Below, piece by piece: positions 6,876-25,487 of a stretch of DNA of 64,000 nucleotides (positions are counted from its first letter, which is position 1; every line of letters begins with the position of its first letter). The DNA lies in assembly GCF_988243305.1 (NCBI RefSeq), contig NZ_OZ547136.1; one strand, given 5' to 3'. Made by a program: the position numbers and the translations under genes. Under the pieces are notes generated by a model. The model ran no database searches and had not been told where the DNA came from. It saw only the letters and a list, made by a program, of their open reading frames with translations.

Positions 6876-7349
6876 ACAGCGAATCAGATCAAATAAAACG
6901 CACATTTGTTAACATTTACACAAAGTCTGCGTGGGATATTCTGAAAGAATATCCATAATGTGGAGAGAATCTATTGAAGTGCATGGTGCCGGGTGCCTCC
7001 CGGTGAATTCAGTACCAGCACCTGAATCCGCGATTATCCCATATACCTACTCGCTGATTGCCCCTCCGCACAGGGGGATTCACCATGCCAGTTTCTTTTA
7101 ACAAACTCCCCGCAAACCAGAGAACAGTCAACCGCCTGAATTGTGAAGTATTTAAAAATTTCTCCCGCTAACTGATACCCGGCTAACAGTCTGGCGTTTT
7201 CTTTTTCAGCAACGGGAAAGCAACAACCACCACACCCGCCACCAGCACACCGTCAGCCAGCACTGACATTATCCGGCTGCTGCAATGCCATTCACAAAAA
7301 CAGTAAGCAATCACTTTTTACCGTAACAGGTGATAATCCAGATATGTAT

Positions 7350-7813: not shown

Positions 7814-7890
7814 TGGCGCGCTGTACTGGATTCGAACCAGTAACCGATTGCTTAGAAGGCAATTGCTCTGTCCGGCTGAGCTAACAACGC
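7814..7890 (-). tRNA. tRNA-Arg (anticodon UCU)
   Basis: Reverse complement gcgttgttagctcagccggacagagcaattgccttctaagcaatcggttactggttcgaatccagtacagcgcgcca folds as cloverleaf: 7-bp acceptor stem, anticodon loop cttctaa, T-loop ttcgaat, CCA end. Confidence 0.9.
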
Positions 7891-7994: not shown

Positions 7995-8070
7995 TGGTGG
8001 CCCTTGCTGGATTTGAACCAGCGACCTGGCGATTATGAGTCGCTCGCTCTCACCACTGAGCTAAAGGGCC
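7995..8070 (-). tRNA. tRNA with CAU anticodon (Ile2/lysidine type or Met), resembling phage ileZ
   Basis: Reverse complement ggccctttagctcagtggtgagagcgagcgactcataatcgccaggtcgctggttcaaatccagcaagggccacca; perfect 7-bp acceptor stem, anticodon loop ctcataa, CCA end. Confidence 0.9.
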
Positions 8071-8213: not shown

Positions 8214-9035
8214 TTACCTAGTTACCTTTTTTAACTGCCGCTCAGCCCATCCTTCTTCAATATCAAACCGGGTCACCAGCGCATCATAGAATTTCTTAAC
8301 TGTTTTTTCCCATGACGCGCGTGTTATCTGGTTTGTCACCTCGCATATAGCATTAAATGCCTCCGTTGATGGTAGTCTTTCATAGCCACGACCACCACAA
8401 CGCTGGCAGTCTCTGATAACAGGCATACCACGTTTTACCGACTCTTCACGGTGAATGGCGACACCACGCCCACGGCAATCCTTACAGGCGGTGGAAACCT
8501 CACCCTTTCCGCCACACTCCGGACAGGCAACTTTTACCACCTCCCTGACTTTTTTCCATTCTTCCCAGTAAGACGGATACACACCTTTCGTACACTTTGC
8601 CCATACCGGCGGCTTACCATCCGGATACTGGACCTTGTTTGTAAAAACTACGCTTTCAATAAATTTTTCCCCATAGCAACAAGGGCACTGCTTTTTACTC
8701 GCTGCGCTGCGGGCATAATCCTCAAAAGCGTACGAAGCCATAATGCGCATCACTACCGGTTTTATTTCTGCCGGAAGTTTTCTCAACGCCGCCACACGAT
8801 CGCACCGACTGAGTGCATAATCTGCCAGTAATTCTGTTGCCCGCGCCCTGTCATTCATACTGATGCCCATTTTCCCCAGGAACGCAGAAAACCCCATCTC
8901 AGCCCGATTCTGTGTCATGCCCTGCGCGGCCATCACATCAGTGATACTCAGCGCATCTTTTGACGTTGAGGCCGATGCATCGGTCAGGCAAGGGGATTTT
9001 GGGGAGTAGTATTTCGGTAAATCTTCCAGTTTCAT
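8214..9035 (-). CDS. Late-gene antiterminator Q (Cys-rich, Qin QuuQ / phage 82 type)
   Basis: 273-aa ORF MKLEDLPKYYSPKSPCLTDAS...CPCCYGE...CPECGGKGEVSTACKDCRGRG...; position immediately upstream of pR'/tR' and lysis genes. Confidence 0.7.
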   Translation of the reverse strand: MKLEDLPKYYSPKSPCLTDASASTSKDALSITDVMAAQGMTQNRAEMGFSAFLGKMGISMNDRARATELLADYALSRCDRVAALRKLPAEIKPVVMRIMASYAFEDYARSAASKKQCPCCYGEKFIESVVFTNKVQYPDGKPPVWAKCTKGVYPSYWEEWKKVREVVKVACPECGGKGEVSTACKDCRGRGVAIHREESVKRGMPVIRDCQRCGGRGYERLPSTEAFNAICEVTNQITRASWEKTVKKFYDALVTRFDIEEGWAERQLKKVTR

Positions 9036-10915: not shown

Positions 10916-11071
10916 TTACTCCTCAGGTTCGTAAACTGTGAAGACAGCGACCTCCGTCTGGCCGGTTCGGATTCGTACCTCGCAGAGGTCTTTCCTCGTT
11001 ACCAGTGCCGTCACTATGACGGTTAAACAGATGACGATCAGGGCGATTAACATCGCCTTTTGCTGCTTCAT
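10916..11071 (-). CDS. hok: Hok/Gef family type I toxin (HokD/RelF-like)
   Basis: 51-aa product MKQQKAMLIALIVICLTVIVTALVTRKDLCEVRIRTGQTEVAVFTVYEPEE; single TM helix and conserved Cys; track ORF carries an in-frame 19-codon upstream extension. Confidence 0.9.
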   Translation of the reverse strand: MKQQKAMLIALIVICLTVIVTALVTRKDLCEVRIRTGQTEVAVFTVYEPEE

Positions 11072-11791
11072 AGCCTGCTTCTCCTTGCCTTTCGGCACGT
11101 AAGAGGCTAACCTAGATTTGCCGTTCATAGATTGAGCCTCAGATTAATGTTAAGCGTCTTGCAGGACGCGTAATGTTAACTGGGGCTTTTCTCTATCTGC
11201 CTTTGGTGTTCATGCCTGAGGCAGATAGCCTCAAGCACCCGCAGCAATTCTACTTAACTCCCGTCACCTCGCCAATATAAAATCAATCAGAAAGGCGATC
11301 CATAAGAACAACAGCAAGACAATAAATTGCCATTACAGCCGCAATAGCTAGCGCACATTTGAGAACCAGCACGACAACCTCCTGTATTGGACGTACACCA
11401 GTTCTGATAAATATGAGGCTGTCTCATCATTGATTCAATATAACTATTGGGTATAGTTTCTGTGATTTTGTTCTGTAGAAATGGAACACAACAACCAGTC
11501 ACCACCAGCACTTCTTTAAATACGCCAAGTCCGACGCAAGCTAACCTTCTAGTCCGCTTTGAGCGAGGAGCGGACCAAACCCGGCCAACTGACTCTTAAA
11601 GGGGCCGCAGGAATTTTTCGTCTGAACTTTCGAAGCTCCTCTCCCTGAAGACAGAAAACTTCTGTGTGCTGTGGGAATATTGAATCTTTGCATTAGATAT
11701 AAATAATTTTATCCCGCCTGAAGTTTACATTATTTTATTTATCTGTTTTTCTAAATCAGACTGCACTCCTTACTTAAATCAGGAGCCAGTC

Positions 11792-19999: not shown

Positions 20000-20425
20000 T
20001 CAATGCACAGCCACAATATTTCCTGCAGGGCCACCACGATTCATCTGGTTGAAACCAGCGATCGCCACTGCGACAAAATCATCAGCGTCTCTCACCAGTC
20101 GTTCCCGCGTCTCCACTAGTTCCCGAAAATAGGCTGAGCTATGGCTGCGCATTCGGGCCACCAGCAGAGGTGGCATTGCTTTTTCGATAGCTGGTAACAA
20201 CGCCTGAATTTTTTCAACTGCATCAGGGGTGTCTTTCTCTACCCAGCGGAAAATTTTCTGGGTATTGCGAGCCAGGGCTTCCGGATGGCTGTCGTCATAC
20301 AGTTCTGGGAACGTCATACCCAGTTCAAAATAAGCCCTGGTTATTTCAGCTGCCGGAACTTTTTCACCGTCCGGATGCGCCCAGGCATTCATCGCCATGC
20401 GGATGTGTTCATGCTTGATTTTCAT
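20000..20425 (-). CDS. YdaT-like protein (CII-position gene of rac-type immunity region)
   Basis: 141-aa ORF MKIKHEHIRMAMNAWAHPDGEKVPAAEITRAYFELGMTFPELYDD...; follows the cro-like gene. Confidence 0.5.
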   Translation of the reverse strand: MKIKHEHIRMAMNAWAHPDGEKVPAAEITRAYFELGMTFPELYDDSHPEALARNTQKIFRWVEKDTPDAVEKIQALLPAIEKAMPPLLVARMRSHSSAYFRELVETRERLVRDADDFVAVAIAGFNQMNRGGPAGNIVAVH

Positions 20426-20690
20426 GAATCAAGCTCCTAGAAAGTGGTTGTGTTAACATTTTGGTATCTTCCAGCTCGGGCCAAATATTCATCCAATCAA
20501 AAGGCCTTAGTTGCTGACGTGTAACTTCACCATTACTGGCTCGCTCAATAAGGACACATAACGATGCCCCTAACACTTGACCTTTACTCAATGCCTTTCT
20601 TAGATAACCGATGCTGGTACCACACTCGCATGCAAACATACGCTGTTCATCTGACGAAAGAGAATTGAGAAATATTCTTAATTCTTCCAT
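20409..20690 (-). CDS. Cro-like HTH regulator (YdaS family)
   Basis: 93-aa ORF with HTH ...CGTSIGYLRKALSKGQ...; divergent from repressor gene across operator region. Confidence 0.6.
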   Translation of the reverse strand: MEELRIFLNSLSSDEQRMFACECGTSIGYLRKALSKGQVLGASLCVLIERASNGEVTRQQLRPFDWMNIWPELEDTKMLTQPLSRSLIHENQA

Positions 20691-20718
20691 AGCTACTCCT
20701 TAGTAAACACAGCAAAGA

Positions 20719-20754
20719 ATACCCACAGGTAAACAAAAGTCAATACCCACAGGT
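20719..20754. promoter_or_regulatory. OR-like operator region: two direct copies of ATACCCACAGGT between cro-like and repressor genes
   Basis: Copies at ~20719-20730 and ~20743-20754, with inverted flanks aggtaaacaa / ttgtttacct. Confidence 0.55.
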
Positions 20755-20790
20755 TGTTTACCTTGCAGTAATCGCATCTATTATTTACCT

Positions 20791-21210
20791 ATGGACAAAT
20801 ATGAATTTAGACGACAGCAACTCATCAAAATTCGTGATGAGAAATGCGATGGTAAAGCGGTTAACGTGGCCAGAAAGATCGGGCGCGAGCCTTCTTATGT
20901 ATCAAGAATGTTGTACCCAGAGGGGAAAAAGGGAAAAAAACGGATCGCTGATGATATGGTGGAGATTATCGAAGAGTCCTTTGGGTTACCCCGGGGATGG
21001 ATGGATGGTATCGTTTCATCATCAACGAACACAGCCTCCAGTTATGAAACAAGGGTTCTAACGCCACGACAACGTATTTTTTTAGATCTCTTAGACGAAC
21101 TGCCAGAAAGTGAAGCGGATAACTTATTAAAAACTCTTGAAGAGAAAAAACAGTATTACAATATGATCTACGAAGAAATCCGTAAAAAGAAAGCACAAAA
21201 CGCATCATAG
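20791..21210 (+). CDS. Putative prophage repressor (HTH protein, cI position)
   Basis: 139-aa ORF MDKYEFRRQQLIKIRDEKCDGKAVNVARKIGREPSYVSRML...; divergent to cro-like gene, flanked by operator-like palindromes. Confidence 0.55.
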   Translation: MDKYEFRRQQLIKIRDEKCDGKAVNVARKIGREPSYVSRMLYPEGKKGKKRIADDMVEIIEESFGLPRGWMDGIVSSSTNTASSYETRVLTPRQRIFLDLLDELPESEADNLLKTLEEKKQYYNMIYEEIRKKKAQNAS

Positions 21211-21252
21211 CTCACCAAACAACTAGTCACCAGTTAAGACACCGCAAAAAGT

Positions 21253-21289
21253 TACCCATGGGTATTTACTTTTTAAATACCTATGGGTA
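21253..21289. promoter_or_regulatory. OL-like operators: palindromes TACCCATGGGTA and TACCTATGGGTA
   Basis: Two 12-bp (near-)palindromes 25 bp apart downstream of the repressor gene, sharing the TACCCA half-site with the OR region. Confidence 0.5.
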
Positions 21290-21475
21290 TCCTTCTTTTC
21301 ATACCAACCCACCCCGCCCCACAGAATGCAGGGCAATACTTCGAGTTACCAGGCAGTGGTCAGGGGTTAAGTAGCCAGCCCGAGGCGTAAGAACATGACG
21401 GCAGGGTTCAACTTTAATAACTATGCAGCAGGTTTTTGTTCCGCTACCCCGGCGTTAAGGGGAAATGAGGTCAGC

Positions 21476-21631
21476 ATGGATACTATCGATCTTGGCAACA
21501 GCGAATCTCTGGTATGTGGCGTGTTCCCCAACCAAGACGGTACGTTCACCGCGATGACGTATACCAAAAGCAAAACGTTTAAAACCGAAAATGGTGCCCG
21601 TCGCTGGCTGGAAAGAAACTCAGGTGAGTGA
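21476..21631 (+). CDS. Small early-left-operon protein (51 aa)
   Basis: ATG with SD aaggggaaatgagg; MDTIDLGNSESLVCGVFPNQDGTFTAMTYTKSKTFKTENGARRWLERNSGE. Confidence 0.45.
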   Translation: MDTIDLGNSESLVCGVFPNQDGTFTAMTYTKSKTFKTENGARRWLERNSGE

Positions 21632-21632
21632 T

Positions 21633-21761
21633 ATGGATTTCGACACAATCATGGAAAAGGCTTACGAAGAATACTTCGAAGGTCTTGCCGAAGGCGAAGA
21701 AGCTCTCAGCTTCAACGAATTTAAACAGGCGCTTTCCAGTTCGGCAAAATCTAACGGCTGA
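21633..21761 (+). CDS. Small early-left-operon protein (42 aa, acidic)
   Basis: MDFDTIMEKAYEEYFEGLAEGEEALSFNEFKQALSSSAKSNG; start 2 nt after preceding stop; too short for ORF track. Confidence 0.4.
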   Translation: MDFDTIMEKAYEEYFEGLAEGEEALSFNEFKQALSSSAKSNG

Positions 21762-21790
21762 TAAGCGAAACAGCACCGCGAGGAATCAGT

Positions 21791-22006
21791 ATGCAGAAAC
21801 GAGAACCCGTCATCATCGCGCCAGACTATACCGATGATGAACTTTATGAGTGGATGCACCAGAAAATTAATGCAGCGCAGGATCTGAAATGGGCCAATGA
21901 AGCTAGGGCTAAGCAGGCTGAAAATCTGTCCGCTCTGGAGCAGGATATCACCAATCTGGAAAAAGCAGCAGCATTAAGCATTGCCAGAATGATTACAGGT
22001 TGGTAA
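21791..22006 (+). CDS. Small early-left-operon protein (71 aa)
   Basis: ORF MQKREPVIIAPDYTDDELYEWMHQKINAAQDLKWANEARAKQAENLSALEQDITNLEKAAALSIARMITGW. Confidence 0.45.
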   Translation: MQKREPVIIAPDYTDDELYEWMHQKINAAQDLKWANEARAKQAENLSALEQDITNLEKAAALSIARMITGW

Positions 22007-22545
22007 TAAAGGAGTTCTCCACGGGTGAGGTGGAGTGCGTGTGCCGGACACGGGTGAGCATCCGGCACTGACAGTTTACTGAAAGGATATTTCCCTGAAA
22101 AGTCAGACCATAACGCGAAAGCGCACGGCGAGGTAGCTGGTTCATAGATAGCCTGTCGTTAAATTTTCGTCGACCGTGCGCTTCCGGTTGTGGCAATCCG
22201 CGAAATGGCGCGGCGGTAAGTATGGCGGGGTTATTCCTTCCCCCGTTGAGGACACCGGGTTGTCAGGTTGACCATACGCTTAAGTGACAACCCCGCTGCA
22301 ACGCCCTCTGTTATCAATTTTCTGGTGACGTTTGGCGGTATCAGTTTTACTCCGTGACTGCTCTGCCGCCCTTTTTAAAGTGAATTTTGTGATGTGGTGA
22401 ATGCGGCTGAGCGCACGCGGAACAGTTAAAACCAAAAACAGTGTTATGGGTGGATTCTCTGTATCCGGCGTTAATTGTTAACTGGTTAACGTCACCTGGA
22501 GGCACCAGGCACCGCATCACAAAATTCATTGTTGAGGACGCGATA

Positions 22546-22734
22546 ATGAAAACGTTATTACCAAACGTTAATACGTCTGAAGGTTGTTTTGAAATTGGTG
22601 TCACTATCAGTAACCCAGTATTTACTGAAGATGCCATTAACAAGAGAAAACAAGAACGGGAGCTATTAAATAAAATATGCATTGTTTCAATGCTGGCTCG
22701 TTTACGTCTGATGCCAAAAAGATGTGCACAATGA
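22546..22734 (+). CDS. ralR: RalR (Lar) restriction-alleviation protein / type I toxin
   Basis: 62-aa product MKTLLPNVNTSEGCFEIGVTISNPVFTEDAINKRKQERELLNKICIVSMLARLRLMPKRCAQ, recalled as rac RalR; track ORF has upstream extension. Confidence 0.8.
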   Translation: MKTLLPNVNTSEGCFEIGVTISNPVFTEDAINKRKQERELLNKICIVSMLARLRLMPKRCAQ

Positions 22735-22922
22735 ATTCAGCATTTGCGCTTGTTCTGACAGTTTTTCTTGTTTCCGGAGAGCCAGTTGATATTGCAGTCA
22801 GTGTTCACAGGACAATGCAGGAGTGTATGACTGCAGCAACCGAACAGAAAATTCCCGGTAACTGTTACCCGGTCGATAAAGTTATTCACCAGGATAATAT
22901 CGAAATCCCGGCAGGTCTTTAA
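22731..22922 (+). CDS. Small secreted or membrane protein (rac YdaC-like position)
   Basis: MNSAFALVLTVFLVSGEPVDIAVSVHRTMQECMTAATEQKIPGNCYPVDKVIHQDNIEIPAGL; ATGA overlap with ralR stop. Confidence 0.5.
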   Translation: MNSAFALVLTVFLVSGEPVDIAVSVHRTMQECMTAATEQKIPGNCYPVDKVIHQDNIEIPAGL

Positions 22923-23015
22923 AACAGTTCCGTAATAAATATCCGGTTTCATTCTTATATGCCAGCAATGGCAGGGATTTATTCATCCTTAAATCTGTCA
23001 TGAGGTTAAAATAAA

Positions 23016-25487
23016 ATGAGTAAAGTCTTTATTTGCGCCGCTATTCCTGACGAACTGGCAACAAGGGAAGAAGGCGCTGTGGCTGTAGCCACAGCCATTG
23101 AAGCTGGCGACGAACGCCGTGCTCGAGCAAAATTTCACTGGCAATTCCTGGAACATTATCCGGCTGCTCAGGACTGCGCTTATAAATTTATTGTCTGCGA
23201 GGATAAACCTGGCATACCCCGCCCAGCCCTCGATTCATGGGATGCTGAATATATGCAGGAAAACCGCTGGGATGAGGATTCTGCTTCTTTTGTTCCGGTT
23301 GAGACTGAATCCGATCCGATGAACGTCACTTTTGACAAGCTGGCCCCTGAAGTACAGAACGCTGTCATGGTTAAGTTCGACACATGTGAAAACATCACCG
23401 TTGATATGATTATTAGCGCGCAGGAATTGTTGCAGGAAGACATGGCAACATTCGACGGACATATCGTTGAAGCGTTGATGAAAATGCCAGAAGTTAACGC
23501 CATGTATCCGGAGCTTAAGTTGCACGCCATTGGGTGGGTTAAGCATAAATGTATTCCTAGTGCTAAATGGCCCGAAATTCAGGCAGAGATGCGCATCTGG
23601 AAAAAACGTCGCGAAGGTGAACGCAAGGAAACCGGAAAATACACGTCTGTTGTTGATCTCGCCCGCGCCAGAACCAATCAACAGTACACTGAAAATTCAA
23701 CAGGAAAAATCTGCCCGGTCATTGCTGCCATTCATCGCGAATACAAGCAGACATGGAAAACACTGGATGACGAACTGGCCTACGCTCTCTGGCCTGGTGA
23801 TGTGGGTGCCGGAAACATTGACGGCAGCATCCATCGCTGGGCAAAAAAAGAAGTTATCGACAACGACCGCGAAGACTGGAAGCGTATCTCGGCATCAATG
23901 CGCAAACAGCCTGATGCCCTTCGCTACGACCGCCAAACTATTTTTGGCCTTGTCCGTGAGCGTCCGATCGACATTCACAAAGATCCCGTAGCACTGAACA
24001 AATATATCTGCGAATACCTGACGACAAAGGGCGCGTTTGAGAATGAAGAAACAGACCTGGGCACTGTTGATGTTCTCCAGTCATCAGAAACACAAACTGA
24101 TGCAGTGGAAACTGAGGTATCTGATATCCCAAAAAATGAAACCGCGCCGGAAGCTGAACCATCTGTAGAGCGTGAGGGGCCGTTCTATTTCCTCTTCGCA
24201 GATAAGGACGGAGAAAAATACGGTCGCGCAAACAAACTTTCTGGTCTGGATAAGGCACTGGCTGCTGGCGCCACTGAAATCACAAAAGAAGAATATTTTG
24301 CCCGAAAAAATGGCACATACACGGGCTTACCGCAAAATGTAGATACCGCTGAAGATTCAGAACAACCAGAGCCGATAAAAGTTACCGCTGACGAAGTAAA
24401 CAAAATTATGCAGGCAGCCAATATCAGCCAGCCTGACGCCGATAAGTTGCTTGCTGCATCACGTGGTGAATTTGTTGAAGGGATTAGTGACCCGAATGAT
24501 CCGAAATGGGTTAAGGGGATCCAGACCCGCGATTCTGTGAACCAGAACCAGCATGAATCGGAACGGAACTACCAAAAAGCGGAACAAAACAGTCCAAATG
24601 CGTTACAAAACGAGCCAGAAACGAAACAGCCTGAACCAGTGGCGCAACAGGAAGTGGAAAAAGCCTGCACCGCCTGCGGTCAGACCGGCGGCGGCAACTG
24701 CCCTGATTGTGGCGCGGTGATGGGCGACGCAACATACCAAGAAACATTCGATGAAGAGTATCAGGTTGAAGTTCAGGAAGATGATCCGGAGGAAATGGAA
24801 GGCGCTGAACATCCACACAAGGAGAACACTGGCGGCAATCAGCATCACAATAGCGATAATGAAACTGGCGAGACGGCAGATCACCCAATTAAGGTGAACG
24901 GTCATCACGAAATCACATCCACCAGCAGGACGTGTGACCATCTAATGATCGACCTTGAAACCATGGGAAAAAATCCTGATGCCCCGATCATCTCAATAGG
25001 TGCAATATTTTTCGATCCGCAAACCGGAGATATGGGACCGGAATTTAGTAAGACTATCGATCTGGAAACTGCTGGCGGAGTCATTGATCGGGACACCATT
25101 AAATGGTGGCTTAAGCAATCACGCGAAGCGCAATCTGCCATTATGACCGATGAAATCCCGTTAGATGATGCACTGTTACAATTGCGGGAATTTATCGACG
25201 AAAACTCCGGTGAATTTTTTGTTCATGTCTGGGGAAATGGAGCCAACTTCGACAACACGATTTTGCGCCGTTCATACGAACGGCAGGGGATCCCCTGCCC
25301 GTGGCGTTACTACAACGATCGCGATGTACGCACAATCGTTGAGCTGGGGAAAGCCATAGACTTCGATGCCAGAACGGCTATTCCATTCGAAGGTGAGCGC
25401 CATAATGCACTTGATGACGCCCGTTACCAGGCAAAATACGTTTCAGTTATCTGGCAAAAACTGATCCCGAGTCAGGCTGATTCTTAA
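23016..25487 (+). CDS. Large early-operon protein with C-terminal DnaQ-like (DEDDh) 3'-5' exonuclease domain, in the recE position
   Basis: 823-aa ORF; C-terminal ~180 aa carry Exo motifs MIDLETMG (D-x-E), VWGNGANFDNTIL, HNALDDARYQAKY (H-x-A-L-x-D-A); central acidic linker with CxxC...CxxC; no recT-like gene follows. Confidence 0.6.
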   Translation: MSKVFICAAIPDELATREEGAVAVATAIEAGDERRARAKFHWQFLEHYPAAQDCAYKFIVCEDKPGIPRPALDSWDAEYMQENRWDEDSASFVPVETESDPMNVTFDKLAPEVQNAVMVKFDTCENITVDMIISAQELLQEDMATFDGHIVEALMKMPEVNAMYPELKLHAIGWVKHKCIPSAKWPEIQAEMRIWKKRREGERKETGKYTSVVDLARARTNQQYTENSTGKICPVIAAIHREYKQTWKTLDDELAYALWPGDVGAGNIDGSIHRWAKKEVIDNDREDWKRISASMRKQPDALRYDRQTIFGLVRERPIDIHKDPVALNKYICEYLTTKGAFENEETDLGTVDVLQSSETQTDAVETEVSDIPKNETAPEAEPSVEREGPFYFLFADKDGEKYGRANKLSGLDKALAAGATEITKEEYFARKNGTYTGLPQNVDTAEDSEQPEPIKVTADEVNKIMQAANISQPDADKLLAASRGEFVEGISDPNDPKWVKGIQTRDSVNQNQHESERNYQKAEQNSPNALQNEPETKQPEPVAQQEVEKACTACGQTGGGNCPDCGAVMGDATYQETFDEEYQVEVQEDDPEEMEGAEHPHKENTGGNQHHNSDNETGETADHPIKVNGHHEITSTSRTCDHLMIDLETMGKNPDAPIISIGAIFFDPQTGDMGPEFSKTIDLETAGGVIDRDTIKWWLKQSREAQSAIMTDEIPLDDALLQLREFIDENSGEFFVHVWGNGANFDNTILRRSYERQGIPCPWRYYNDRDVRTIVELGKAIDFDARTAIPFEGERHNALDDARYQAKYVSVIWQKLIPSQADS

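Follow-up and report, generated by a model that had tools for sequence, protein, structure and literature searches.

In the interval at 22007-22922, a Qin-like (PPompW-type) lambdoid prophage carries the distal half of its dicBF operon; taken jointly with the processing scheme known from K-12 and with a predicted cut in the leader of dicB, this reading has in our estimate a probability of about 0.96. An earlier note had described the same DNA as an intact ralR restriction-alleviation gene followed by a ydaC-like gene. Judged from its sequence, the supposed ralR locus is instead the well-studied and already known cell-division-inhibitor operon that encodes DicF, DicB and YdfD. Within this operon, a structured RNA module that is conserved and unannotated lies on each side of DicF, and both the recurrent 5' domain of the DicF precursor and the covariation-supported, STnc100-related leader of dicB go beyond the literature that we examined. 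Rfam has no entry for either module as such, and the phage and genome records inspected do not annotate them. Coordinates refer to the window, that is the whole 64,000-nt stretch of DNA analysed (Table 1).

Table 1. Genes and RNA features of the dicBF interval and its surroundings, in window coordinates
Feature	Coordinates	Strand	Basis
ydfA (DUF1391), first gene of the operon	21476..21631	+	Pfam PF07151, 96.2 bits; position as K-12 ydfA
ydfB	21633..21761	+	Named ydfB in the H1 record; equivalent K-12 position
ydfC; the spacer is its 3' UTR	21791..22006	+	ORF; ydfC annotation under megablast matches
Short G+C hairpin just past the ydfC stop, GTGCCGGA / TCCGGCAC	22041..22068	+	Inverted repeat I6, 8 nt, 100% complementary
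Long imperfect helix; putative RNase III site for the 5' end of the 190-nt precursor (~22183-22187)	22108..22192	+	Repeat I2, fold
Conserved 5' domain of the 190-nt pre-DicF	22187..22310	+	Recurrence, covariation in 78 copies
DicF sRNA, 53 nt (22320-22372), with terminator hairpin and T-run	22320..22376	+	Rfam RF00039
STnc100-like structured leader of dicB	22379..22530	+	Rfam RF02076 (sub-threshold), covariation, fold
dicB, 62 aa, MinC-dependent cell-division inhibitor	22546..22734	+	Pfam PF05358, NCBIfam NF049927
ydfD, 63 aa, DUF1482, annotated 'lysis protein'	22731..22922	+	Pfam PF07358
Exonuclease gene, 823 aa, followed by xis and int	23016..25487	+	Pfam PF16473, H1 annotation

Gene content of the locus

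The genes are arranged as ydfA-ydfB-ydfC, a long untranslated spacer with DicF, and then dicB-ydfD, and the integration site of the prophage adjoins ompW. Both the K-12 gene order and the order in a 100%-identical record (H1, strain 203740) agree with this arrangement, which supports the identification as dicBF. In H1, the ydfA product is a "DUF1391 family protein", and the counterpart of the gene downstream of ydfD is an 'exonuclease', followed by excisionase, integrase and ompW; Pfam and NCBIfam searches with the ydfB product gave no match. The 1-kb region is widespread: of 5426 complete E. coli genomes, 4736 (~87%) contain it, always annotated as ydfC/dicB/ydfD.

Profile searches identify the products of the two small distal genes. 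The first matches two DicB families over residues 1-62 (PF05358, 131.6 bits with a cutoff of 27; NF049927, 127.2 bits with a cutoff of 100), is identical to K-12 DicB at 61 of 62 positions, and is preceded by a Shine-Dalgarno sequence, GAGGA, at 22535-22539. The second matches PF07358 with 92 bits (cutoff 25) and shares 62 of 63 residues with K-12 YdfD. The ATGA coupling that had been described for these two genes is present, as an overlap at 22731-22734. Further downstream, residues 642-813 of the 823-aa product match an Rv2179c-like 3'-5' exonuclease family (225 bits), and the gene is the intact counterpart of the K-12 pseudogene ydfE.

The closest known system is the dicBF operon of K-12 Qin (Kim), ydfABC-dicF-dicB-ydfD(E), with the same genes in the same order, an identical DicF and a spacer that is ~98% identical and fully so from 22241 to 22512. 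This near-identity makes processing and function transferable from the K-12 literature. The prophage studied here looks more complete, with an intact exonuclease gene, xis, int and ompW, whereas K-12 has an IS2-disrupted ydfE and intQ pseudogenes. The two also differ on the repressor side, where the present prophage encodes a 139-aa protein with similarity to DicA in its C-terminal part only, together with YdaT-like and regulator genes in place of the dicC-ydfX-ydfW of K-12 Qin.

DicF and the structured modules on either side of it

Between the ydfC stop and the ATG at 22546, the spacer (22007-22545) comprises 539 nt without an ORF of 60 aa or more. The description of this stretch as ORF-free in the earlier note is true of long ORFs only, since small mechanical ORFs of 25-31 aa occur in it and an in-frame extension of dicB with a GTG start begins at 22441. 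Coding potential was rejected because the ORFs reach just 25-31 aa and because indels among homologues, in the variable regions, are not multiples of three. The spacer is strongly folded: its minimum free energy (MFE) is -212.7 kcal/mol compared to -177.9 ± 6.3 for shuffled sequences (z = -5.5), and none of 100 shuffles was as good. The hairpins that the earlier note had pointed out are thus borne out, and the palindrome singled out with them, GTTAACTGGTTAAC, lies at 22477-22490. The short hairpin next to the ydfC stop appears in both the MFE and the centroid fold.

The spacer had also been suspected to carry a terminator or a small RNA, a guess that was right for the wrong reason: it contains DicF together with an intrinsic terminator. 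The Rfam model RF00039 scores 76.7 bits (gathering threshold 48, E = 3.6e-15) over positions 1-52 of 52, and the sequence is identical to K-12 dicF (b1574). Its terminator consists of a hairpin at 22334-22370 (-15.9 kcal/mol) followed by TTTTT, and the sRNA lies where it would be expected, in the ydfC 3' UTR of a dicBF-type operon and 5' of dicB. In K-12, the operon is transcribed from a repressor-controlled promoter 5' of ydfA and most RNAs end at the DicF terminator, giving a terminated transcript of 1146 nt and a read-through transcript of 1608 nt, with no internal promoter found (PMC10448788). RNase III yields a 190-nt DicF species and RNase E a 53-nt species (PMC10448788), while a 72-nt DicF is cut by RNase III from the read-through RNA (PMC5069750, PMC9438474). 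Transcripts other than read-through mRNA, the absence of which was to speak against a small RNA, have thus been published for K-12 in the form of these three species. The K-12 DicF, identical in sequence to the one here, is Hfq-dependent and represses ftsZ and metabolic mRNAs (PMC10448788, PMC5069750, PMC9438474).

Upstream of DicF lies a long helix built around the inverted repeat I2 (22116-22128 / 22174-22186); the fold of 22100-22200 has -37.4 kcal/mol (z = -2.86). The RNase III-dependent end reported for K-12 (PMC10448788), combined with counting back from the terminator, would place the 5' end of the 190-nt species in the 3' arm of I2. The helix is optional, as the segment bounded by the direct repeats 22114-22130 and 22199-22215 is missing from loci L017 and L042. 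It is followed by the 5' domain, which is composed of stem-loops SL-A (22198-22213), SL-B (22226-22245) and SL-C (22257-22265/22285-22293) and has no match to any Rfam family. This domain recurs in Stx2c phages, cdtI, Ayreon, 2H10 and the ban leaders of P1 and P7, and it always precedes a variable linker and an intrinsic terminator, with 3' ends that differ between copies. In an alignment of 78 distinct copies (A5), its 25 pairs are 95.5% paired and 8 of them show compensatory changes, compared to 3.0 ± 1.2 in shuffles. A possible pseudoknot helix (22220-22225/22272-22277, GTATGG/CCATAC) draws on a single compensatory event that is restricted to P1-type sequences, which have GCATGG/CCATGC. The GenBank record of P1 has a feature named 'dicF-like region'.

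The second module is the leader that fills most of the distance between DicF and dicB, ending 5 nt 5' of the dicB Shine-Dalgarno sequence. It is closed by a 21-bp helix, P1 (22379-22399 / 22510-22530), which encloses P2 (22403-22418), P3 (22419-22421/22464-22466) with a variable insert, P4 (22467-22493), whose apex is the palindromic motif, and P5 (22495-22509). The dicB coding sequence begins 54 nt past the leader core motif. Searched with the STnc100 model RF02076, the region 22369-22578 scores 38.8 bits over model positions 1-206, which is below the threshold of 47, with E = 8.3e-7 in an 801-nt search. Sister leaders score 32.9-43.8 bits, and five independent leaders were matched in all. 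RNAalifold, applied to 34 leader copies, found P1-P5 independently and in agreement with the layout of the Rfam STnc100 consensus. On these grounds the dicB leader is likely homologous to STnc100, at scores that do not reach formal membership of the family. A terminator hairpin of its own is absent from the dicB leader, where the model's 3' portion falls on the ribosome-binding site and coding start of dicB and forms low-quality pairs.

Covariation indicates that the leader is under structural constraint. In the alignment of 34 distinct copies (A3), the 40 pairs are 97.5% paired and 14 of them are compensatory, compared to 4.2 ± 1.5 in shuffled alignments (reached in 0 of 500) and to 1-4 in slid-partner controls that preserve relatedness. 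The compensatory changes come from several independent lineages (L032, L035, L040 and P7-type), and the fold itself has a z-score of -5.03. Many phages have this fold in front of dicB, kilR, terB/tciA or rha-type genes, and its distance to the start codon stays fixed at 54-66 nt across these unrelated genes. The DicF seed (22324-22332) and the leader core (22488-22496) are complementary as a perfect 9-mer. This pairing was set aside as a signal, because chance alone would give ~0.6 such matches in 540 nt and because the leader 9-mer is conserved whichever sRNA sits 5' of it.

Related systems and proposed processing

The KilS-kilR locus of Rac shares the cassette: an sRNA with a DicF-like terminator hairpin (39-41 bits with the Rfam DicF model, sub-threshold), the same structured leader of ~150 nt, and a small cell-division inhibitor gene 59 nt past the conserved core. 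KilS is a northern-verified 'kilR 5' UTR' sRNA, reported as possibly having its own promoter (PMC8175672). The two loci differ in the seed region of the sRNA and in their cargo, KilR acting on FtsZ and DicB through MinC. STnc100 (RF02076) and PasD, which have been linked to each other by structure (Zhu, Shabalina & Storz 2026), have the same multi-branch fold as the dicB leader, with a closing helix, P2, a variable hairpin, P4 and a P5 of the form CCNGG-AGGCA-CCNGG, and share with it the invariant core TCACCNGGAGGCAC..G.CACC. A bona fide STnc100 copy (114 bits) is present in the window at 6927-7117(-). STnc100 is a free-standing sRNA, whereas the dicB copy has no terminator of its own and is joined to the ribosome-binding site of dicB, and the closing helix of the dicB leader, at 21 bp, has the size of an RNase III substrate compared to ~8 bp in STnc100. 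The literature examined makes no mention of DicF or dicB in connection with STnc100.

In the lambda N leader and at the T7 early sites R1-R5, RNase III cuts a long hairpin just 5' of the ribosome-binding site and thereby separates functional RNAs. The dicB leader likewise places a long hairpin directly before the ribosome-binding site in an early phage operon and has no sequence relationship to these sites; its helix encloses a conserved four-hairpin core, whereas they have a simple loop.

The RNase III and RNase E processing sites of the literature map onto the two long helices, I2 and P1; the transcription and processing data are those of K-12, and the sites are placed here by sequence identity. 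In the scheme established for K-12, RNase III cuts a long helix 5' of DicF to give the 190-nt precursor, which RNase E trims to the 53-nt Hfq-dependent DicF. RNA that reads through to dicB-ydfD is cut by RNase III 3' of DicF, giving the 72-nt species. This downstream cut probably falls within the P1 closing helix, in which case DicF would be separated from a dicB-ydfD mRNA with a short 5' UTR of ~26 nt, and processing may also free a core of ~128 nt with the STnc100 fold. Consistent with such a site, the 3' end of the 72-nt DicF maps to ~22391, inside the 5' arm of P1, given that the 72- and 190-nt sizes are gel estimates and mapped ends are accurate to a few nucleotides. An rnc-dependent site has been listed in the K-12 dicF-dicB intergenic region at 1,649,470 (Gordon et al., PMC5371410 Table S1); it corresponds to window position 22408, ~17 nt off the predicted cut, and rests on only 26 reads. 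A second RNase III cut in the 3' arm of P1, an excised core RNA and any effect on dicB expression are inferred.

Alternative readings and significance

In the reading of the earlier note, a RalR DNase toxin and a YdaC-like protein would be accompanied by a RalA-like antisense antitoxin in the spacer or on the opposite strand, as in the type I toxin-antitoxin system of Rac. Its appeal lies in a superficial likeness: a pair of small genes, coupled by ATGA, sits in the early-left operon of a lambdoid prophage near exonuclease, xis and int, a neighbourhood similar to that in Rac. RalR/RalA shares with dicBF the common setting of small early-left lambdoid genes near recombination and integration genes, whereas regulation is by a processed sense-strand sRNA here and by a cis-antisense antitoxin there. 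Both proteins match DicB and DUF1482 at full length; BLASTP with RalR gave at best E = 3 over 3 residues for the 62-aa protein, and the 63-aa protein has no similarity to YdaC/RcbA, with no RcbA alignment at E ≤ 100. The RalA model (RF02694) reached 225.1 bits on its genuine K-12 Rac target, used as a positive control, yet gave no hit at its gathering threshold in the 64-kb window and none at E ≤ 10 in 21900-22700; the comparison with Rac that the note had suggested thus goes against it, and the RalR reading, to which we give virtually no credence, is refuted by these sequence tests. Promoter-like sites are at chance level (4 compared to 4.2 ± 2.3 in shuffles), none of them on the plus strand within the spacer, which counts against an antisense antitoxin and equally against an independent spacer promoter for dicB or a start site for another antisense transcript. 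One earlier study suggested a promoter 5' of dicB (noted in PMC10448788), and a lone weak minus-strand site (22481-22454, 9/12 matches) could serve an antisense transcript, but primer extension and northern blots in K-12 revealed no additional promoter (PMC10448788), and we consider initiation within the spacer quite unlikely.

That the spacer is mainly an antitermination region, in which a put-like cis-acting RNA or the nut site of an N-like protein would enable read-through past the DicF terminator into dicB, we hold to be very unlikely. Its position is analogous to that of the lambda PL-operon terminators, an intrinsic terminator invariably follows the 5' domain closely, even where the domain opens the ban operon transcript of phage P1, and the MFE structure of the 190-nt RNA has GGCGCGGCGG (22208-22217) paired to the terminator's 3' arm. 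This antiterminator pairing was nevertheless dropped as a candidate, because the 190-nt fold is barely better than shuffles (z = -1.68) and because the pairing cannot form in phage P1, which keeps the domain and has a different terminator sequence. Contrary to the suggestion of nut-like elements, a regular-expression search of 21211-22546 for boxA (CGCTCTTA / GCTCTTTA) with up to one mismatch found none, a result that leaves room for a divergent nut, boxB having no usable consensus; moreover, the published account of DicF, termination plus processing, needs no antitermination (PMC10448788). Considerably more probable, if still short of an even chance, is that the spacer outside DicF has no function beyond its RNase III and RNase E helices and owes its spread to recent common descent and to mosaic exchange between prophages of the lambdoid and P1-like kinds. 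Identity exceeds 90% for most copies, some phages do without the I2 helix, related sequences can exceed a shuffle control without real structure, and the pseudoknot has the narrow basis given above. Against this stand the compensatory leader pairs from several lineages, in excess of controls that preserve relatedness, the maintenance of the leader fold at a set distance from unrelated genes, and its detection by the covariance model of a free-standing sRNA family.

The competing proposal, that the two parts of the spacer other than DicF are portable modules of RNA, each functional in its own right, is one that we put forward tentatively, at somewhat less than even odds. The 5' domain could be a common scaffold to which phage-specific 3' ends, each with its seed and terminator, are attached; DicF, the Stx2c-phage variant and the P1 ban-leader variant could then form an sRNA family of one scaffold and many seeds, and the role of the scaffold might be to guide trimming by RNase E or to shield the precursor. 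The STnc100-fold leader could be a plug-in 5' UTR placed at a fixed distance before toxic or host-manipulating cargo (dicB, kilR, terB/tciA, ash-rha), and in its lambdoid versions the closing helix could have been lengthened into an RNase III substrate. Cleavage would then resolve the read-through RNA into an sRNA, an STnc100/PasD-like core of ~128 nt and a cargo mRNA with a short leader.

The practical value of the dicBF identification is the correction of a label: the locus encodes DicB, YdfD and DicF, not RalR, YdaC and RalA, and is a copy of a locus that ranks among the bacterial sRNA loci known for longest. The module proposal would join DicF, KilS and STnc100/PasD, which have been treated separately, into one modular architecture, and could matter for work on prophage sRNAs. 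The RNase III cuts on either side of DicF, long known, would also gain a structural setting. Finally, the proposal suggests, in a form that can be tested, that prophages may gate toxic division inhibitors behind a terminator and a processed leader.

Identity of the operon and of its spacer

The locus is the dicBF operon, with representatives of the DicF, DicB and YdfD families, rather than a RalR/RalA module. CDS 22546-22734, which the earlier note had called an intact RalR, encodes a 62-aa protein that is a full-length DicB match (Pfam PF05358, 131.6 bits; NCBIfam NF049927, 127.2 bits, cutoff 100) identical to K-12 DicB at 61 of 62 residues, while its similarity to K-12 RalR is limited to a 3-residue match with E = 3. 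The 63-aa product of 22731-22922, previously described as YdaC-like, is YdfD (DUF1482, 92 bits; 62/63 identical to K-12 YdfD) and gives no alignment with YdaC/RcbA of Rac. A covariance model of RalA, the antisense antitoxin that is paired with ralR in Rac, finds no match in the window; on Rac itself it reaches 225 bits. The RalR/RalA framework is ruled out by this absence and by the DicB and YdfD identities.

The architecture that had been read from the DNA holds. From the upstream stop at 22006 to the ATG at 22546, 539 nt contain no ORF of at least 60 aa; the two downstream genes overlap by ATGA (22731-22734); the HpaI-type palindrome GTTAACTGGTTAAC is present (22477-22490); and the spacer folds at -212.7 kcal/mol compared with -177.9 +/- 6.3 in shuffles (z = -5.5). 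Because the spacer contains DicF and its intrinsic terminator, the guess of a terminator or small RNA was right; the nut alternative has no support, with no boxA-like sequence (up to one mismatch) across the operon leader and spacer. Matches to a promoter consensus are no more frequent than chance predicts (4 seen, 4.2 +/- 2.3 expected). Relative to the K-12 ydfC-dicB spacer there are a few substitutions and a single-nucleotide indel, and 22241-22512, which takes in the whole of DicF (K-12 dicF b1574), is identical.

The dicBF operon as such is already known. Megablast with 21950-22950 finds it in 4736 of 5426 complete E. coli genomes (median 2 copies, maximum 10), and the matches are annotated ydfC/dicB/ydfD in every case. 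An 82-85% identical E. coli-type spacer also occurs in PP818812.1, 'Actinobacillus phage vB_Apl-pPE4', an unexpected host assignment. Upstream lie ydfA (DUF1391), ydfB and ydfC; downstream, in a 100% identical strain, follow an exonuclease gene, xis and int, with ompW adjoining, and phage records name the element PPompW. K-12 has only the IS2-interrupted pseudogene ydfE, whereas its counterpart here is intact; the N-terminal ~640 residues of this exonuclease have no Pfam match. The immunity region (20000-21210) also differs from that of K-12 Qin: a 139-aa protein similar to DicA in its C-terminal part only (23.9 bits) faces a 93-aa regulator and a YdaT-family protein, and repressor specificity is probably different from Qin. 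The palindrome before ydfA, terminator-like in our scan, could be the operator of a dicB-type promoter or a terminator.

Features of the operon and elsewhere in the window
Feature	Position	Strand	Remarks
STnc100 sRNA, bona fide	6927-7117	-	114 bits; fold common with dicB leader
sok antitoxin RNA	11066-11240	-	Rfam 111.7 bits; hok/sok (hokD-type) type I toxin-antitoxin, same prophage
Near-perfect palindrome	21253-21289	+	16-bp stem, TACCCATGGGTATTTAC...GTAAATACCTATGGGTA-like; between repressor-like gene 20791-21210 and ydfA
Long imperfect helix	22116-22128 / 22174-22186	+	3' arm holds putative 5' end of 190-nt RNA
DicF sRNA	22320-22371	+	Rfam 76.7 bits, gathering threshold 48, E = 3.6e-15, full length
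Intrinsic terminator	22334-22370	+	DicF hairpin, then TTTTT
21-bp helix	22379-22399 / 22510-22530	+	5' arm holds putative 3' end of 72-nt DicF
Exonuclease gene, 823 aa	23016-25487	+	C-terminal Rv2179c-like 3'-5' exonuclease domain

Predicted processing sites in the spacer

In K-12, whose locus is near-identical, the operon is driven by dicBp. DicA represses this promoter, and repression is lifted by the antirepressor Rem or stress, or stochastically; no internal promoter was found; 1146-nt transcripts stop at DicF and 1608-nt read-through transcripts take in dicB-ydfD (PMC10448788). DicF derives from this polycistronic RNA: RNase III cleavage gives a 190-nt species its 5' end, and RNase E does so for a 53-nt species; with Hfq it represses ftsZ, xylR, pykA and manX, and DicB inhibits division via MinC and blocks ManYZ-using phages (PMC10448788). 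A 72-nt DicF results from RNase III processing of read-through RNA (PMC5069750, PMC9438474).

Counted back from the terminator, 190 nt would place the precursor 5' end at ~22183-22187; counted forward from 22320, 72 nt would end at ~22391. A staggered RNase III cut in the opposite arm of the 21-bp helix would fall near 22519-22520 and leave a dicB mRNA with a ~26-nt leader (Shine-Dalgarno sequence, SD, 22535-22539), and cuts in both arms would release a ~128-nt core. The rnc-dependent site of the K-12 dicF-dicB intergenic region (1,649,470, 26 reads; PMC5371410 Table S1) corresponds to 22408, which is consistent with the predicted cut but imprecise. Separately, 17-nt direct repeats (22114-22130, 22199-22215) flank the helix in which RNase III would generate the 190-nt precursor. 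Precisely the stretch that they enclose is missing from two viral loci (L017, L042), so repeat-mediated indels seem to account for gain or loss of the helix.

Conserved structures on either side of DicF

The 190-nt precursor carries a conserved module in its 5' part. Matched by no Rfam family, 22187-22310 recurs in Stx2c phages, cdtI, Ayreon and 2H10 at ~89% identity, and its counterpart (77-82%) opens the ban-operon transcript of phages P1/P7, at whose start the P1 record marks a 'dicF-like region'. Scanning with its invariant loop yielded 78 distinct copies, and in every one a variable linker leads to an intrinsic terminator whose sequence differs between copies. Three hairpins and a candidate pseudoknot helix are 95.5% paired, with compensatory changes in 8 pairs vs 3.0 +/- 1.2 in shuffles; a single such event supports the pseudoknot (GTATGG/CCATAC; P1-type GCATGG/CCATGC). 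An antiterminator role was dropped on the fold of the 190-nt RNA and the comparison with P1. In four viral contigs (L131 3582-3826, -; L217 7952-8196, +; L225 4220-4464, +; L236 7472-7716, +) the terminator hairpin after a pre-DicF-type 5' domain encloses AGGAG...ATG, burying ribosome-binding site and start codon in its stem.

Between dicF and dicB lies a conserved structured leader that is related to STnc100, a prophage sRNA family (Rfam RF02076). A permissive Rfam scan matches 22369-22578 to the full-length family at 38.8 bits (E = 8.3e-7), below the gathering score of 47, and the same element scores a sub-threshold 32.9-43.8 bits directly upstream of several other genes; it precedes kilR in K-12 Rac, Rac-SA53 and Shigella Stx phage 75/02, and terB/tciA in phages P7 and P1. 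A search of viral contigs for the invariant core TCACCNGGAGGCACNNGNCACC returned two types of copy: 75 distinct ones with no adjoining CDS (sRNA type) and 34 distinct leader-type ones, with SD and start codon 54-66 nt after the core, before genes for DicB-family proteins (+54), KilR (+59), TerB (+62), Ash-Rha proteins (+62/63) and some small uncharacterised proteins. Across the 34 leaders, RNAalifold predicts helices P1-P5, with 97.5% of cells paired and compensatory changes in 14 of 40 pairs, against 4.2 +/- 1.5 in column shuffles (0/500 reach 14) and 1-4 in slid-partner controls. Hairpin P4 has the HpaI-type motif at its apex. The closing helix measures 21 bp in lambdoid leaders, but ~9 bp in phages P1/P7 and ~8 bp in STnc100 proper.

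The bona fide STnc100 of the window follows a Q-like gene (8214-9035, -) and two tRNA genes (7817-7890, 7998-8070, -), and a TolA-C-terminal-domain gene (PF06519, 6388-6816, -) comes ~110 nt after it. Rac has, in place of DicF, the northern-verified sRNA KilS (PMC8175672; 6906-7003, -, of the K-12 Rac locus L003), whose 3' hairpin is a sub-threshold DicF match (39.1 bits); an rnc-dependent site (1,418,510, 41 reads) lies 8 nt upstream of its 5' end (Gordon 2017, PMC5371410 Table S1). The DicF 5' seed GGTGACGTT (22324-22332) perfectly complements AACGTCACC (22488-22496) in the conserved leader/STnc100 core, a 9-mer kept in 29/34 leaders. Because ~0.6 such pairs are expected by chance per 540 nt, the match is not evidence of interaction; it raises the idea of a DicF-STnc100 sponge.

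In Zhu, Shabalina & Storz (2026) STnc100 is linked to PasD, and neither DicF nor dicB is named. Some of the sequence similarity may have been described before. The structural conservation of both modules is well supported, and the functions proposed for them are inference. Our tentative reading, at a probability of about 0.35, is that DicF sits between two portable structured RNA modules, one a precursor scaffold and the other an RNase III-processed leader of STnc100 fold that would serve toxic cargo genes.
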